From positions 1 to 54,257 of IMG/VR virus record IMGVR_UViG_3300031938_000005: a stretch of DNA of 54,257 nucleotides. One strand, written 5' to 3'. Each line of letters opens with the position of its first letter. Position 1 is the stretch's first letter. Shown here piece after piece: positions 3,760 through 27,867 of the stretch. Origin of the DNA: a virus (lineage: Duplodnaviria; Caudoviricetes). The notes under the pieces were generated by a model. The model worked only from the letters and a program-made list of their open reading frames with translations, was not told the origin of the DNA and searched no databases. The translations under genes and the position numbers were made by a program.

Positions 3760-4036
3760 GTAAGACGTCCTCTTCATTCTCAGGATAGATGCAAGCCGAA
3801 AACGACATCTGGTTGAGCTGCTCAATGTACCATTCCTGGTTTGGCTCAAAATCAGATGCTTTGGTTGGGCGCTTGCGCTTGACTTCCAAGATCGCCCAGT
3901 AAGGTCCGTGGAGAATGAGAAGATCAGGGATCCCTTGGCGGTACTGCGTGTCCAGCTTCTGGATCAAGCAACCGGGGAACCGACGCTCCATGCGATCGAT
4001 CAGTCCGGCTTGGTAATCCCGCTCTAGTTTTCCCAT
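3701..4036 (-). CDS. VRR-NUC-like nuclease
   Basis: E...GIPDLLIL...LEVKR...PNQEWY motif pattern. Confidence 0.8.
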   Translation of the reverse strand: MGKLERDYQAGLIDRMERRFPGCLIQKLDTQYRQGIPDLLILHGPYWAILEVKRKRPTKASDFEPNQEWYIEQLNQMSFSACIYPENEEDVLHEMELAFRPRRAARVLVRQ

Positions 4037-24330: not shown

Positions 24331-25125
24331 TTACCGAAAGGAGTAGTAGTCTCGAATCGGCTTCGTTCGGTACTTCACCGCCATCACAGTGGTCTGTCCG
24401 CTGTCATGGATGACCGCGTCATATCCCACCTCGAGGAGGTTGTCGCTCGTCCAGCCGACCTCGTCCGACTCCTGTGTCTTGGACAGACCCAGGTGCTCGT
24501 AGAAGTCGGTCAGAGACGAATATCCATGCACGTTGAGCTGGTGGTTCAGGTCGTTCACAGCCCGGTTGACGGCCTCCATGTTGCTACGGAAGTACCGACC
24601 ACTCCACGAGTCCTGGAAGATCTGGTCAGCGTCGTTCGTGACGATGACGATGTTCTCCTTGGTGGGCGGGTTACTGTCGACACGGTCCTGGGCAACTGCC
24701 ACATCGACCTTCTCTGCCTTGTTCTTCCCGATCTGCTCGACCACCTTCTCCCGATAGTCCACGAAGGCCTTCTCGGAAATAGTGAATGCCGCAGCCATAG
24801 CTGCAGAGCGGGAAGTGCTGATCTTGTTGGAACCGACCACCGAAGCGACGGTGATCAGGCCCACGCCACAGGCCGGGACATACGACTTCCAGGTCAGCGC
24901 CAGTTTCTCTTGGAACGTGGGCTCATATGAGCTCTGCGTCGCAGTTCGTCGGATGTTCTCCGAATAACGCTTGTCCGCGATGATCTCCGCCGACTTGTAG
25001 CCACCACGGGCTGCAAGATATGCGGTTCCGATGACGCCAACGGCGGCAACGACGGTCAACAGAACCGGACTGTTGTCGATGGTGAACTTCTGGGCCTTCT
25101 TGGCGACATCACTTGCTGAGGTCAT
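24331..25125 (-). CDS. DUF6353-like protein (paralogue of 20054..20962)
   Basis: NSPVLLT..AAVGV.GTAYLA, YREKV, D.WSGRYF, SL.DFY..LG, VGW. Confidence 0.75.
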   Translation of the reverse strand: MTSASDVAKKAQKFTIDNSPVLLTVVAAVGVIGTAYLAARGGYKSAEIIADKRYSENIRRTATQSSYEPTFQEKLALTWKSYVPACGVGLITVASVVGSNKISTSRSAAMAAAFTISEKAFVDYREKVVEQIGKNKAEKVDVAVAQDRVDSNPPTKENIVIVTNDADQIFQDSWSGRYFRSNMEAVNRAVNDLNHQLNVHGYSSLTDFYEHLGLSKTQESDEVGWTSDNLLEVGYDAVIHDSGQTTVMAVKYRTKPIRDYYSFR

Positions 25126-25462
25126 TGTGGTACTCCGTTGCACGGTCGATGGTGTCTTGGTCTCGCGCTTCGATCTCCTTCTGGAGACGCTTAGCGTCCT
25201 TCTGTTCCTCGATCATCTGGTCGTAGATCGAGAGGTTCTTCCTCTCCGGCTCACTCGGGAGAAGAACAATGTGATTCCGCAGGCTGTTGCGCTTGATCTT
25301 ACGCTTGAACAGCCGCTTGAGTGCCCATCGCTGGAAGTCATGGACAAGGTCTCGGAAGCCTTCCCACATGAGGTACATCCCGATGAGCGGGAACAACGAG
25401 AAGACCGCCAGAATGACGGCCATGATGATCCATTCAAAGACCATCAGAATGAAGTCGAGCAT
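25109..25462 (-). CDS. membrane protein
   Basis: Hydrophobic N-terminus, AAAGGAG RBS. Confidence 0.7.
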   Translation of the reverse strand: MLDFILMVFEWIIMAVILAVFSLFPLIGMYLMWEGFRDLVHDFQRWALKRLFKRKIKRNSLRNHIVLLPSEPERKNLSIYDQMIEEQKDAKRLQKEIEARDQDTIDRATEYHNDLSK

Positions 25463-25490
25463 TCTGCGCTCCTTTCAGATATGGGGTCCC

Positions 25491-25628
25491 TTAGGACCGG
25501 CGGCGCATTTCGCGCACGAATATGAAGATGAGCCAGAGCCCACCAGTGAGAAGCGTCATCGCACAATCCGCGATGAACTTCCAAAAGCCGTAGTTACGTC
25601 GCCGTTCAACGATGACATACTTCGACAC
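25491..25628 (-). CDS. small membrane protein (45 aa)
   Basis: Manually read MSKYVIVERRRNYGFWKFIADCAMTLLTGGLWLIFIFVREMRRRS; AAAGGAGG RBS. Confidence 0.7.
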   Translation of the reverse strand: MSKYVIVERRRNYGFWKFIADCAMTLLTGGLWLIFIFVREMRRRS

Positions 25629-25661
25629 GGGTCCTCCTTTCTGGGTTTGGGTATTAGGCAG

Positions 25662-25724
25662 AAAAAAAAAGGAAGAGTTGTATTACACTCATGTGTAGTA
25701 CGCTCGCTTAGCGCGAATCTCTTC
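25662..25724 (-). ncRNA. small three-way-junction RNA (cassette sRNA B)
   Basis: Promoter motif, then GAAGAG..CTCTTC closing stem (53 nt), two internal hairpins, T9 tract. Confidence 0.7.
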
Positions 25725-25749
25725 ATTATGAGCCATGTTTTTTCTGCGA
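25723..25749 (-). promoter_or_regulatory. phage promoter motif copy
   Basis: TCGCAGAAAAAACATGGCTCATAATGA. Confidence 0.8.
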
Positions 25750-25751
25750 GG

Positions 25752-25812
25752 AAAAATAAGAAGAGGTGTAGCGACTCGAACGCATGGCTCCCTAAAATGA
25801 GCTAATCTCTTC
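25752..25812 (-). ncRNA. small tRNA-elbow-like RNA (cassette sRNA A)
   Basis: GAAGAG/CTCTTC stem, GCTC-ATTTTAGG-GAGC (D-arm-like), GCG-TTCGAGT-CGC (T-arm-like), TTATTTTT tail. Confidence 0.7.
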
Positions 25813-25868
25813 ATTATGTACCCTGTGATTCCTGCGAAACTGAAAGCCCTTGTGGGGCTTTGCAGCTT
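25811..25868 (-). repeat. terminator+promoter repeat unit
   Basis: AAGCTGCAAAGCCCCACAAGGGCTTTCAGTT-TCGCAGGAATCACAGGGTACATAATGA. Confidence 0.9.
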
Positions 25869-25871
25869 GGA

Positions 25872-26030
25872 TCAGTCGTTCTGGTTCTTCTTCTGGATGG
25901 CGTCGTACGCGTGAACAGCGAGGGAGGCCGCGACCAGGGCGGTGAAGGCGTAGCGCTTGATTTTGGTGTTGCGCCGGCTCTTCTTCGCCTGGGTCTCGAT
26001 CTCCGAGGTGTTGTCGGTGACGATGTGCAT
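25872..26030 (-). CDS. cassette gene, 52-aa single-TM protein
   Basis: Manually read MHIVTDNTSEIETQAKKSRRNTKIKRYAFTALVAASLAVHAYDAIQKKNQND; GAAAGGA RBS. Confidence 0.75.
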   Translation of the reverse strand: MHIVTDNTSEIETQAKKSRRNTKIKRYAFTALVAASLAVHAYDAIQKKNQND

Positions 26031-26060
26031 TTCAGGGTCCTTTCAGAGGGGTGAATGGTC

Positions 26061-26118
26061 TCATTATATGGCCCGTAATTCCTGCGAAACTGAAAGCCCT
26101 TGTGGGGCTTTGCAGCTT
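26061..26118 (-). repeat. terminator+promoter repeat unit
   Basis: Near-identical to 25811-25868; promoter TCGCAGGAATTACGGGCCATATAATGA. Confidence 0.9.
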
Positions 26119-26123
26119 GCTGC

Positions 26124-26315
26124 TCAGGCAGCGGGTTCGACGTCCCAACTCATGTCGTAGTACTCATCGAAGAGGTTGTGCTCCTTGAGGAATTCGTTCC
26201 ACTCACGAGCGTTGCGCATCTGCAGAGCGATGCCTACCGAGGCGGTGGCAACTACTGCAATGGCGACGCGGTGGTCGGAAACGAACTTCCTCGTACGGGC
26301 GATCTTGTTCTTCAT
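26124..26315 (-). CDS. cassette gene, 63-aa single-TM protein
   Basis: MKNKIARTRKFVSDHRVAIAVVATASVGIAL...FLKEHNLFDEYY. Confidence 0.8.
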   Translation of the reverse strand: MKNKIARTRKFVSDHRVAIAVVATASVGIALQMRNAREWNEFLKEHNLFDEYYDMSWDVEPAA

Positions 26316-26344
26316 TGTATGTCCTTTCATAAGGGGTTTGGGTC

Positions 26345-26402
26345 TCATTATATGGCCCGTAATTTCTGCGAAACTGAAAGCCCTTGTGGGGCTTTACAGC
26401 TT
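26345..26402 (-). repeat. terminator+promoter repeat unit
   Basis: Near-identical unit; promoter TCGCAGAAATTACGGGCCATATAATGA. Confidence 0.9.
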
Positions 26403-26405
26403 GGA

Positions 26406-26558
26406 TCAGTTCTCGTTGGTCTCGGTCAGCTTCTCGACGAGCTTGTCGTCCGCAGCCTTGGCGAGGTCCGTGACGAACTGGTAAAGGCCGTAAGCGGCCA
26501 TACCAAGTGCGACAAGTACCAGGCCGTCATTAGCGGTCTTAGCAGTTTTCTTAAGCAT
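26406..26558 (-). CDS. cassette gene, 50-aa single-TM protein
   Basis: MLKKTAKTANDGLVLVALGMAAYGLYQF... Confidence 0.75.
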   Translation of the reverse strand: MLKKTAKTANDGLVLVALGMAAYGLYQFVTDLAKAADDKLVEKLTETNEN

Positions 26559-26587
26559 GATGGGTCCTTTCAGAGGGGTGAATGGTC

Positions 26588-26645
26588 TCATTATATGACC
26601 CGTAAATTTTGCGAAACTGAAAGCCCGTGTGGGCTCTCAGCTTTA
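26588..26645 (-). repeat. terminator+promoter repeat unit
   Basis: AAAGCTGAGAGCCCACACGGGCTTTCAGTT-TCGCAAAATTTACGGGTCATATAATGA. Confidence 0.9.
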
Positions 26646-26647
26646 AC

Positions 26648-26806
26648 TCAGTACATCTCCGTGCGGGGTGCAGCGTGGTATGAATTGGTGGCGAAGGCGT
26701 ACTCCGGCTTCCGTTCCTCGATAACGGTCTCGACGACCTGCTTGGGGTCTTCGTTCCGCATCTTGGCTTGGGCCAGGGCAATCGCTTCGGTCAGGTTCTT
26801 CGGCAT
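26648..26806 (-). CDS. cassette gene, 52-aa protein
   Basis: MPKNLTEAIALAQAK..., GAAAGGAAG RBS. Confidence 0.75.
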   Translation of the reverse strand: MPKNLTEAIALAQAKMRNEDPKQVVETVIEERKPEYAFATNSYHAAPRTEMY

Positions 26807-26835
26807 GTTGCTTCCTTTCAAAGTGGTTAATGGGT

Positions 26836-26862
26836 TCATTATATGGCTCGTAAATTCTGCGA
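26836..26862 (-). promoter_or_regulatory. phage promoter motif copy
   Basis: TCGCAGAATTTACGAGCCATATAATGA. Confidence 0.85.
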
Positions 26863-26917
26863 CATTAATCCGGTTTATCCCCCCGGGCAAATTTTTAGAG
26901 TCCAGGATTGAACTCGG

Positions 26918-26978
26918 GAAAGGAACCATACCTTTGCAACTTGTGCATTGGCGCCTCTAATGAAGCGGGATTCCTTTC
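26918..26978 (-). ncRNA. small three-way-junction RNA (cassette sRNA C)
   Basis: GAAAGGAA/TTCCTTTC closing stem, GCTTC-ATTA-GAGGC and TGCA-CAAGT-TGCA hairpins, no ORF. Confidence 0.6.
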
Positions 26979-27003
26979 ATTATGATCCGTGATTATCGTG
27001 CGA
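26977..27003 (-). promoter_or_regulatory. phage promoter motif copy
   Basis: TCGCACGATAATCACGGATCATAATGA. Confidence 0.8.
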
Positions 27004-27006
27004 ACC

Positions 27007-27050
27007 AAAACTAAGAGGCCCTGTAAGGTGTTTAGTCTCACAGGGCCTCT
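27007..27050 (-). terminator. intrinsic terminator
   Basis: AGAGGCCCTGT...ACAGGGCCTCT-TAGTTTT. Confidence 0.8.
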
Positions 27051-27083
27051 CGGCTTTGATGTCTGTTCAGTTGGCTTGGCGGT

Positions 27084-27377
27084 TCAGCCGAGCTTCTTGA
27101 CGAATCCGAGGGCCTTGGTGGAAATCACGTTCACGTCTTCATGACGGATGATCAACGCGATACCGATCAGATTTGCCGCAACGGTCAGAACAACATCAGG
27201 GCTCGGTCGCCACTTGGGAGCACGGTCGTGCTCGCGCAGCTTGTAGAGCTTGATGAGGTTGTCTGCCATCTTGGTGTACTTATCAGTATCGGGGTCGACC
27301 GTCTGCATGTCGTCGTGCAAACGTTCGATTGCCTTCTCAAGGTCCGTCGTCTCGACGGGGGGCTTCGGGGTGAACAT
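27084..27377 (-). CDS. cassette gene, conserved hypothetical protein
   Basis: SPDVVL.VAANLIGI.LII.HE..NVI.TKA.GFV motif. Confidence 0.8.
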   Translation of the reverse strand: MFTPKPPVETTDLEKAIERLHDDMQTVDPDTDKYTKMADNLIKLYKLREHDRAPKWRPSPDVVLTVAANLIGIALIIRHEDVNVISTKALGFVKKLG

Positions 27378-27401
27378 AGCGTTCTCCTTCTGTATAGGGT
27401 C

Positions 27402-27428
27402 TCATTATAAGAGATGTTATTCTCGCGA
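27402..27428 (-). promoter_or_regulatory. phage promoter motif copy
   Basis: TCGCGAGAATAACATCTCTTATAATGA. Confidence 0.75.
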
Positions 27429-27447
27429 GGCCCTCATTGAGGAAGGA

Positions 27448-27867
27448 TCAGTGCTTGAGCACCTTGAAGGTGATCTCCTTCTTGGTCGCCAGGTCATCCG
27501 GGTGGGAATTCAGCTCCAGCGACATCGTCTTCGAGTTCTCGTCCTTCTGCATCATGTGCATGAAGCCGTCGAACTTGACATCGGACTTGTTGTAGGAGCG
27601 TCGAGCCACTCGGACCACAAGGCCGAGGAAGACGGTGAATGCGGTGATGGTCGCAGAGACCTTCTCGCCCCCGCCAAGACCCCAGATCGTCGCTACCGCG
27701 AGATACAGGGTGGCCATGCCGGGAAGGATGACCTCGACGAGTGCACGAAGCGCCTCGTAGGTCCCGCTACTGAAGACCAGGGCCGGAGGCGTCTGCTCCT
27801 CGATCGGGGTGATCTCCGGGTCCTCCGTCAGCGGGGTCTCGGGAATGTTCATCGGGGTGTTCGTCAT
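27448..27867 (-). CDS. holin (Dp-1-like)
   Basis: YEAL...ILPG.ATLY...IWGL...V.ATI...FLG, two TM segments. Confidence 0.7.
   Translation of the reverse strand: MTNTPMNIPETPLTEDPEITPIEEQTPPALVFSSGTYEALRALVEVILPGMATLYLAVATIWGLGGGEKVSATITAFTVFLGLVVRVARRSYNKSDVKFDGFMHMMQKDENSKTMSLELNSHPDDLATKKEITFKVLKH

Follow-up and report, generated by a model that had tools for sequence, protein, structure and literature searches.

Units A and B are two tandem cassettes, free of credible open reading frames (ORFs), in a soil viral contig (IMG/VR record IMGVR_UViG_3300031938_000005; Duplodnaviria, Caudoviricetes). The window that was analysed is the full record of 54,257 nucleotides (nt), for which completeness is estimated at 91%. 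Its large terminase shares 77–78% identity with the terminases of Streptomyces phages in cluster BI (Rima and DrGrey, for example), and the minus strand holds all of its long ORFs. In the direction of transcription, the structural genes are followed by those for the tape measure and minor tail proteins, the holin gene and a run of very small genes; after this run come the genes for a DUF6353 membrane protein, a polymerase-primase, a helicase and an exonuclease and, last of all, the gene for a protein of 909 amino acids (aa). The two units lie between the holin and DUF6353 genes. Positions are collected in Table 1, and loci from other genomes and contigs are referred to by L numbers where they need to be told apart.

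The initial annotation of this DNA described two 88-nt cassettes of the same frame, each consisting of a promoter, fixed bases at both ends of a variable interior and a T tract, with 53 nt from the first G to the last C. This anatomy is confirmed. Both cassettes are real and lie on the minus strand, and each comprises a 25-nt promoter, a 53-nt stretch whose six end bases can pair with each other, and a T tract. When the units are laid in register, the promoter blocks are identical at 19 of 25 positions, the GAAGAGATT that follows at nine of nine and CTCTTC at six of six, after which come the T-rich tails. The six bases ahead of the T tract are thus the same in A and B, and they are complementary to the first six. 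The interiors are, as had been claimed, unrelated: ten of 38 bases are identical, and the score of the gapped global alignment is matched or beaten by 241 of 2000 shuffles. No credible ORF was found in the units; the listed frames of 41 and 56 aa start at the ATG within the promoter's ATAATG and have no ribosome-binding site. A 19-codon frame in unit A, behind GGGAG at a spacing of 2 nt, was also considered as a small peptide and judged implausible; it runs past the T tract into the next promoter.

ViennaRNA folds each unit as a closing stem around two internal hairpins. The proposal of two hairpins per unit holds fully for unit B, where both of the hairpins that had been named are recovered; unit A is also folded in this way, but its fold is not above chance. 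The fold of unit B (−16.7 kcal/mol) has a z score of −3.0 and is equalled by three of 200 shuffles. A third ORF-less unit, upstream of A and B, has the same closing stem and two hairpins, with a fold (z = −3.8) that none of 200 shuffles equals. In A and B the closing stem has six base pairs (bp), two of them G-C, around a branched insert of 41 nt, and the U tract abuts the stem; if the 5′ arm is left out, no hairpin adjoins either T tract. A terminator scan that allowed loops of 3–8 nt did not call this stem. A search of positions 24500–27500 against Rfam gave no family match; the only model returned, one for a microRNA at E = 2.8, falls in another part of the region.

Chance does not account for the promoter: when at most two mismatches are allowed, the pattern TCGCAG-N14-ATAATGA has 11 matches on the minus strand of the window and none on the plus strand, and the reversed pattern used as a control has none. 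Most of these copies sit just after a terminator hairpin. Eight of the 11 lead directly into GAGACC or GAACCC and then a small ORF with its ribosome-binding site, the exceptions being A, B and the third unit. The motif also occurs in Streptomyces and Arthrobacter phages; in Streptomyces phage Rima it is found in modules of terminator, promoter and small gene. In IMG/VR, at least 99 stretches, from AT-rich and GC-rich contigs alike, have the motif with GAAGAG behind it. Among 231 motif matches in the collected loci, the base after TATAAT is G in 95% and the next is A in 90%, with purines thereafter; the positions TCGCA, CA and ATA[AG]T are fixed by the search pattern in this profile, and beyond these required bases there is A at −14 (85%) and T at −6 (94%). 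Conservation spans −25 to +4, AT-rich relatives included. A scan of positions 24500–27000 for sigma-70-type sites (−35 and −10 elements 16–18 nt apart, with a start 6–8 nt after −10) found none, and there is no −35 hexamer at a workable distance from a −10-like hexamer.

The question of where transcription begins can be approached through the arms of the closing stem. In 213 distinct promoter contexts, each 6-nt arm was tested for a complement (G-U pairs counted) immediately ahead of a T-rich tail. Arms that begin at the G after TATAAT find one in 43 contexts, and this is the peak; arms shifted by +6, +9, +12, −6 and −9 pair in 13, 5, 5, 7 and 1 contexts, respectively. Arms that take in the preceding bases are also common (27 contexts at −1 and 20 at −2). 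In a second test, the 7-nt arms of 104 units with no ribosome-binding site and ORF within approximately 80 nt were swapped: a unit's own arm finds a complement in 37 of 104 cases, swapped arms in 261 of 2080 (12.5%). The arms covary, as in GAGATG/CATCTC, GAAAGGTAAGG/CCTTGCCTTTC, GAGAAGG/CCTTCTC and GATAGGAG/CTCCTATC. It is therefore likely that transcripts start at the G after the hexamer, or 1–2 nt before it, because a start 6–8 nt past TATAAT would delete the 5′ strands of all of these stems. Single-polypeptide phage polymerases have promoters in which a conserved block runs right up to the start. The geometry proposed here would resemble that arrangement and differ from that of sigma-70. 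The features of a phage-polymerase promoter are all present: a long motif, many copies on the same strand, a start sequence that is conserved and, elsewhere in the genome, a gene for a candidate polymerase.

Closed units of this kind recur. Across the collected loci, 64 units are closed from the first base (an arm of at least 5 bp and a T-rich tail), and they range from 18 to 133 nt, with simple hairpins in mRNA leaders at the short end. A group of 51–64 nt has a closing stem and two hairpins, and includes L015 (53 nt), L042, L020 (56 nt), L025 (55 nt), L033 and L037 (60 nt), L058 (61 nt) and L012 (64 nt). Most of the units tested in this group fold beyond shuffles, with z from −2.3 to −3.4, and L025 has a canonical-looking T arm stacked on its closing stem. 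The initial annotation had taken A and B for members of a family of phage small RNAs conserved in shape and size. A recurring class (promoter, self-closing RNA and T tract) does exist in many related phages and occupies the corresponding genomic site in cultured relatives; the fixed size has to be given up, as the orthologues of unit B are 60–61 nt and the small units of relatives approximately 51–64 nt, so that the equal 53-nt length of A and B is not a family rule.

Cultured phages provide further examples. In the Arthrobacter phages Egad, Gordon, Niktson, Phaby and Sporto, an unannotated stretch of 342–442 nt lies directly upstream of a DUF6353-like gene. These five gaps hold 13 promoter copies, with two or three tandem units per phage, and behind 12 of these copies lies an RNA whose closing stem, of 6–11 bp, begins at its first base. 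The units include one of 52 nt in Egad, one of 60 nt with a T-arm-like hairpin in Gordon and Niktson, and a cloverleaf-like type of 83–91 nt. The last type, RNA2, is an RNA of 81–96 nt behind the same promoter in Arthrobacter phages and AT-rich contigs. Its consensus has 22 pairs, 14 of which show compensatory changes among six sequences, and two invariant single-stranded motifs; no Rfam family matches it. In L058, L033/L129, L037/L122 and Sporto there are longer forms that include a T-arm-like hairpin. A covariance model of RNA2 (R1; 83 positions, 22 pairs) run against the window gave a best E value of 0.33, on the wrong strand and for a fragment only, and the idea that unit A is a deleted RNA2 was dropped, there being no real match to the model in the window. 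A gap of a different character was noted in Gordonia phage Gill (L133:5217-5483): 267 nt are unannotated, with inverted-repeat arms of approximately 25 nt and a structured interior, and carry no promoter motif. This may be another non-coding RNA of a different kind.

Unit B belongs to a small family. The pattern of its frame found three viral contigs (L033, L037 and L058), and a metagenome scan returned only two known contigs again plus nine chance matches with no promoter. The three orthologues have the same promoter, the same first seven bases and, at equal distance, a 5-bp hairpin with the loop GCTAA; beyond this, they continue with a second hairpin, the sequence of which is unrelated, and then AA, the 3′ arm and the T tract. 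The window and all three contigs share these features, including a GAGA-rich 5′ arm and a position before the DUF6353 operon. Unit B was also considered as a riboswitch, which was rejected since hairpin 2 is not conserved. Hairpin 1 is maintained by compensatory changes. Its loop is invariant, it is paired in 15 of 15 cells and four of its five pairs have changed on both sides, a count that rests on three distinct sequences and on the gapless first 24 nt only, since MAFFT misplaced a gap in the alignment of the four RNAs. Such covariation was reached by four of 500 shuffles, and controls slid along the sequence pair in 13–47% of cells. Approximately 22 of the 53 RNA positions are conserved, which is not neutral behaviour because the DUF6353 proteins of the window and L033 share only 42% identity. 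One further RNA, on the minus strand of the AT-rich contig L097 (near position 4031 of the reverse complement), follows a variant of the promoter with a GCTAA-loop hairpin at the distance from the start seen in unit B, and a T-arm-like hairpin lies further on.

The gene order after the RNA is also conserved. In L033, L037 and L058 the next genes, one or two in number, encode small lipoproteins or membrane proteins and have a ribosome-binding site and no promoter; the DUF6353 gene comes after them. A scan of the window found no promoter motif between 25725 and 24237, and so the genes at 25628–24331 must be transcribed through the T tract of unit B. Read in this way, unit B is the leader of the downstream operon and the predicted sole transcription route into it. 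This raises the alternative that B acts purely in cis, as a promoter-proximal terminated leader of which A is a spare or decayed copy: a phage factor, which would be expected to bind the conserved hairpin 1, would permit read-through into the operon, and the short RNA would be a by-product. Evidence for this includes the first gene after the last unit, which has a ribosome-binding site and no promoter in the window, in L033, L037 and L058 and in the five Arthrobacter phages; in the latter, the last gap unit is always followed by the ribosome-binding site of the next gene and no further promoter. Egad has, in addition, a second, canonical hairpin and T run after its unit, and the invariant loop of hairpin 1 on a covarying stem is as found in protein-binding hairpins. 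The last unit, however, differs from phage to phage (unit-B type, RNA2 type or a third type), so that there is no common binding site; units that are not last, unit A among them, feed no gene; and no candidate antiterminator was found, while a leaky terminator alone would account for expression of the operon. We regard this alternative as possible, although on balance unlikely.

No orthologue of unit A was found, and its first 16 bases and arm, used as a query, returned only L093 and one chance match in a coding region. Its likely relatives are of another kind. Six elements that lie just behind promoters score with the Rfam tRNA model, the match in L020 being partial (model positions 8–63). 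The model starts at +1 from the promoter's G in L093 (57.8 bits) and L038 (55.8 bits), at +4 in L077 (41.1 bits), and at +6 in L101 (51.4 bits) and L029 (47.9 bits), where the element is nested in an outer GAAGAG stem. These last five all run into T tracts. Their acceptor stems would be cut into by transcription that began 6–8 nt past TATAAT, as at a sigma-70 promoter. The anticodon stem carries a four-base loop in L029, L101 and L038 and an oversized or aberrant loop in L093 and L077; ARAGORN reports 'tRNA-???' for L093 and L077 and nothing in L029. To judge from these features, the elements are tRNA-shaped and not decoding tRNAs. In L093 the mimic stands directly ahead of three ordinary tRNA genes. 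A blastn search with the L029 mimic against cultured phages gave two marginal matches only.

Unit A shares its first 15 bases with the L093 mimic. When its interior (the first nine and last six bases being omitted) is aligned with the L038 and L077 mimics, the score beats 1000 of 1000 shuffles in each case; for L093, L101 and L029 the score is reached by 32, 334 and 190 of 1000 shuffles, respectively. As controls, unit B and the third unit were put through the same comparison and for the most part do not pass, an exception being unit B against L038 (26 of 1000). The alignment retains the D-stem bases and a 7-nt T loop identical to that of L038; missing from it are approximately 22 nt, which correspond to the whole anticodon arm and to the 5′ side of the T stem. 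Unit A has a 3-bp stem with this 7-nt loop, where the T arm of a tRNA has a 5-bp stem, and unit B has no such hairpin. Unit A is thus best read as a truncated tRNA mimic, a cut-down form. It should be noted that neither unit is itself recognized as a tRNA: ARAGORN found no tRNA or transfer-messenger RNA (tmRNA) in the whole window, and RF00005 has no match in positions 24500–27500 even at E up to 10 (family threshold 29 bits). There is no anticodon arm with a 7-nt loop in A or B, only the two internal hairpins, and no 3′ CCA, the closing stem meeting the T tract directly.

A history of loss could also be taken further, and it might be supposed that the cassettes are empty or decaying: through the shuffling of promoter, gene and terminator modules in these phages, the gene would have been lost, the promoter and terminator would remain under selection, possibly as insulators, and the interior would have no function. 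This is mainly plausible for unit A, the fold of which is at shuffle level and which has no orthologue and resembles a tRNA mimic minus approximately 22 nt; the interiors of A and B are unrelated, and the region as a whole is a run of near-identical terminator and promoter modules spaced 243–284 nt apart. It is difficult to extend to unit B, the interior of which is conserved with compensatory changes even though the neighbouring protein is 42% identical. The z scores of unit B and the third unit are well beyond shuffles, ORF-less units occupy the same position in nine phage genomes or contigs, and covariation is strong in some classes, as in the 14 of 22 pairs of RNA2. The explanation is rather improbable.

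A candidate for the enzyme that reads the promoter is encoded in the window. The 909-aa protein matches phrog_4291 over its full length (E = 0), has helix-turn-helix and sigma region 4 matches at both ends and carries a DFDGD motif at residue 526; a sequence search of the PDB with it gave no match. Proteins of the phrog_4291 type have been described as putative YonO/crAss-like RNA polymerases and as a signature of a supergroup that includes Streptomyces BI, Arthrobacter AM/AU/AW, Gordonia DJ, Rhodococcus CC, Microbacterium EL, Lactococcus 1706-like and Faecalibacterium phages (bioRxiv 10.1101/842583); the word 'promoter' is absent from that preprint. The paper on SPbeta YonO reports that this enzyme starts upstream of an unannotated non-coding RNA, and leaves its promoter undefined as of 2017 (PMC5467207). 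Among ten promoter-bearing records, phrog_4291 is full-length in all five that are at least 77% complete; of the others, one 66%-complete fragment holds the end of the gene at its edge, and the four with no match are 12–60% complete. Such co-occurrence is expected by descent, because the phages are related, and alone does not link the enzyme to the motif. The most likely reader of the motif is this YonO-like RNA polymerase, encoded by the phage itself.

We favour, with a confidence somewhat better than even, the view that A and B are genes for small RNAs and that they represent a class characteristic of this supergroup, in which the 5′ end of the RNA closes the terminator stem, and that B doubles as a leaky or regulated entry to the operon. 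A and B would be two separate transcription units for small non-coding RNAs. Each RNA would begin at the G following ATAAT, or 1–2 nt before it, at a phage-specific promoter (the 25-nt block and a purine-rich start) most likely read by the YonO-like polymerase. The nascent 3′ arm CUCUUC would pair with the 5′ end GAAGAG, a three-way junction would be closed directly before the U tract and the transcript would end; since the transcript would contribute its own first six bases as the 5′ strand of the stem, RNA and terminator hairpin would be one and the same. The product is expected to be a closed RNA of approximately 55–65 nt with both ends tucked in. Read-through of the unit B terminator would allow expression of the promoter-less operon, with its small membrane proteins and the DUF6353 protein. 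Unit A would descend, cut down, from the anticodon-less tRNA-shaped RNAs found behind the same promoter in related phages, and may be either a minimal mimic of the tRNA elbow and acceptor or decaying. Unit B as an operon leader, the likeness of unit A to a truncated tRNA mimic and the non-sigma-70 layout of the promoter are all absent from the initial annotation.

Several points weigh against this view. Unit A has no orthologue, its stems are of only 3–4 bp and its fold (−12.2 kcal/mol, z = −0.8) is equalled by 32 of 200 shuffles. A 41-nt multi-branch loop within the closing stem is not that of a textbook terminator. The unit B family amounts to three distinct sequences plus the window. The pattern used to collect loci required GAAGAG, by which the share of closed units is inflated, and the signal is weaker in units that do not begin with GAAGAG, where a unit's own arm finds a complement in 12 of 54 cases, compared with 10.2% for swapped arms. 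The promoter holds a perfect TATAAT or CATAAT, which host sigma-A could read. Three relatives with complete or nearly complete genomes carry the promoter class in the non-structural half only. The records behind L037, L042 and L029 (G008, G009 and G002) have 9–11 promoter copies per complete genome, nearly always on one strand, and the polymerase gene of G008 has a copy approximately 1 kb upstream of it. If the motif is found only in the non-structural half and also before the polymerase gene, either the enzyme enters with the DNA or another polymerase acts first; early promoters read by the host enzyme would show this layout, unless the polymerase is injected with the DNA. In crAss-like phages and N4 the polymerase does enter the cell with the DNA.

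These same features could be explained if the promoters belonged to host sigma-A, with a start approximately 7 nt after TATAAT and an untranscribed GAAGAG arm, and if the tandem promoters and the inverted repeat acted at the DNA level, for example as a transcription-activated replication origin. The hexamer is a perfect −10 element, the promoter class occupies the early half of the relatives' genomes and the units are mid-genome, approximately 3.5 kb away from the point near 22 kb at which cumulative GC skew is lowest; the primary origin of T7 has tandem phage promoters. We nevertheless consider such a role very unlikely, in view of the absence of a sigma-70-type site or usable −35 element from the region scanned, and of conservation that extends from −25 to +4 even in AT-rich relatives, where a −35 element would be expected. 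Both the peak of arm pairing and the starts of the tRNA-model matches fall right after TATAAT, and minus the 5′ arm neither T tract would have an abutting hairpin.

What the RNAs might do in trans is a separate matter. The roles first suggested for them, as a mimic of CRISPR repeats (an RNA anti-CRISPR), an antitoxin mimic or a guide, have in their favour only the general points that these are small, strongly promoted, structured phage RNAs with fast-changing interiors. An antitoxin array of the ToxI type consists of tandem near-identical repeats, and the units do not conform to this, their interiors being similar only at the level of shuffles and not repeats of each other. There is no Rfam match, and no Cas-like or guide-using gene lies nearby; none of the three roles finds support, and this group of functions is highly improbable. 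A broader proposal, which we offer as doubtful, is that A and B belong to a large undescribed class of self-closing phage RNAs, made by the YonO-like polymerases of the actinophage and Lactococcus-1706-like supergroup from promoters that extend right up to the start, the motif being the promoter of that polymerase family. The class would include tRNA look-alikes with the anticodon loop replaced or the anticodon arm deleted, and its members would act in trans as decoys for host proteins that recognize the tRNA acceptor end and elbow, such as defence toxins that modify tRNA 3′ ends or tRNA-processing enzymes.

Table 1. Positions of units A and B, of other features of the window, and of related RNAs in collected loci.
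Feature	Position	Strand	Remarks
Unit A, cassette	25837-25750	−	88 nt
Unit A promoter	25813..25837	−	TCGCAG, 14 nt, ATAAT; one of 11 same-strand copies in the window
Unit A RNA (predicted)	25760..25812	−	53 nt; 5′ arm 25812-25807, 3′ arm 25765-25760 (predicted fold)
Unit A internal hairpins	25802-25787; 25783-25771	−	predicted fold; second with T-loop-like 7-nt loop
Unit A T-rich tail	25750..25759	−	TTATTTTTCC; read from sequence
Unit B, cassette	25749-25662	−	88 nt
Unit B promoter	25725..25749	−	19/25 bases shared with unit A promoter
Unit B RNA (predicted)	25672..25724	−	53 nt; 5′ arm 25724-25719, 3′ arm 25677-25672 (predicted fold)
Unit B hairpins	25717-25703 (hairpin 1); 25701-25680 (hairpin 2)	−	predicted fold; hairpin 1 with loop GCTAA
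Unit B T tract	25662..25671	−	C then nine T; read from sequence
Third ORF-less unit	26918..27003	−	promoter 27003-26979; predicted 61-nt RNA 26978-26918; no T tract
Leader and 45-aa membrane-type gene	25491..25661	−	ribosome-binding site; first of operon; no own promoter
Next gene of the operon	25462-25109	−	no promoter motif between genes
DUF6353 membrane protein gene	25143-24331	−	same operon
Terminator hairpin and short T run	25838..25861	−	closes preceding 52-aa gene cassette; adjoins unit A promoter; hairpin repeated
Identical 19-nt hairpin, three copies	25843-25861; 26093-26111; 26377-26395		each ahead of a promoter
Holin gene	27867-27448	−	
Polymerase-primase gene	18533-14646	−	
Candidate single-chain RNA polymerase, 909 aa	452..3181	−	YonO/crAss-like two-barrel type; phrog_4291 match
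RNA2	L135:1527-1611		
RNA2	L137:1528-1612		
RNA2	L132:3307-3389		
RNA2	L020:6956-7036		
RNA2	L062:1009-1091		
RNA2	L077:5683-5778	−	
tRNA-model element	L029:3279-3359	−	
tRNA-model element	L101:4525-4605	−	
tRNA-model element	L077:7650-7733	−	
tRNA-model element	L038:2610-2681		
tRNA-model element	L093:11416-11491		

The surroundings of the units have some features of interest in their own right. On the minus strand at 26863–26917, just upstream of a promoter, the window has an A/T-rich stretch followed by CCCGGGGGGA or a near variant. The same combination lies upstream of one promoter per genome in Rima, Moozy and contigs L058, L033 and L037, the sites including L009:11029-11162 and L134:2465-2730. 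Between 26403 and 25838 on the minus strand there are three near-identical 83-nt modules of terminator and promoter, with 77–89% identity and spacings of 250 and 284 nt. That such modules flank unrelated small genes suggests cassette shuffling through recombination at the modules. A blastn search with positions 25400–26200 against cultured phages found no match, nor did the exact pattern of the unit frame in viral contigs, and a search for relatives of the 117-aa downstream protein found none. Four soil DNA runs yielded only fragments broken at repeats and no usable variants; one contig from run X3 follows the unit B side to 25749 and then diverges, and is not counted as evidence.

Parts of this arrangement have counterparts in known systems. 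The tRNA-like domain of tmRNA and the bacterial Y RNAs (YrlA) are tRNA mimics with no decoding function. The RNAs described here are like these in having an acceptor-like closing stem, T-arm-like and D-like hairpins and no usable anticodon, and the relatives of unit A score as tRNA in Rfam with a tetraloop in the place of the anticodon loop. Units A and B, in contrast, are below any tRNA-model score, end in a U tract rather than CCA and are only 53 nt long, with their own promoter abutting the first base; no gene for Ro, SmpB or a similar protein was seen. RNAs C and D of phage T4 are small, stable, tRNA-related RNAs cut from a long precursor. The likeness to them, and to phage tRNA clusters, lies in small tRNA-related phage RNAs beside tRNA genes, as in L093, whereas here each RNA is predicted to have its own promoter and its own closing-stem terminator.

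In phage lambda, the late promoter is followed by the 6S RNA, a terminator and then an operon reached by read-through, and there are boxB-type hairpins. A promoter, a short terminated RNA and an operon that needs read-through are likewise predicted here, and hairpin 1 of unit B is like boxB in its 5-bp stem and 5-nt loop near the 5′ end, the loop being invariant and the stem covarying. The differences are that no antiterminator was found, that the polymerase is probably not the host's, that the units come in arrays of two or three and that the RNA's own 5′ end would form the terminator stem. The promoters resemble those of T7/SP6-type polymerases in the long block that reaches a purine-rich start and in their many copies on one strand; they differ in that the polymerase would be of the two-barrel YonO/crAss kind with helix-turn-helix ends and that the motif holds a TATAAT hexamer. 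Like an intrinsic terminator, each unit has a stem followed immediately by a U tract, but the 'loop' is a 41-nt insert of two hairpins, and the stem would take its 5′ strand from the six bases with which the transcript opens.

Neither the motif nor the cassettes were found to be described in the literature searched, which did not cover subscription journals or supplementary files. If the RNAs are real, a well-sampled group of phages would carry a whole layer of unannotated genes, in the form of arrays of small closed RNAs, and some of these RNAs would be tRNA-shaped and yet unable to decode. The group concerned comprises the Streptomyces BI, Arthrobacter AM/AU/AW, Gordonia DJ, Rhodococcus CC, Microbacterium EL and Lactococcus 1706-like phages, together with many contigs from soil and gut, and the gaps in question are blank in the GenBank records of cultured, student-isolated phages. 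The motif would also provide a concrete candidate promoter for the YonO-like polymerases, which the 2017 paper on YonO leaves undefined (PMC5467207).

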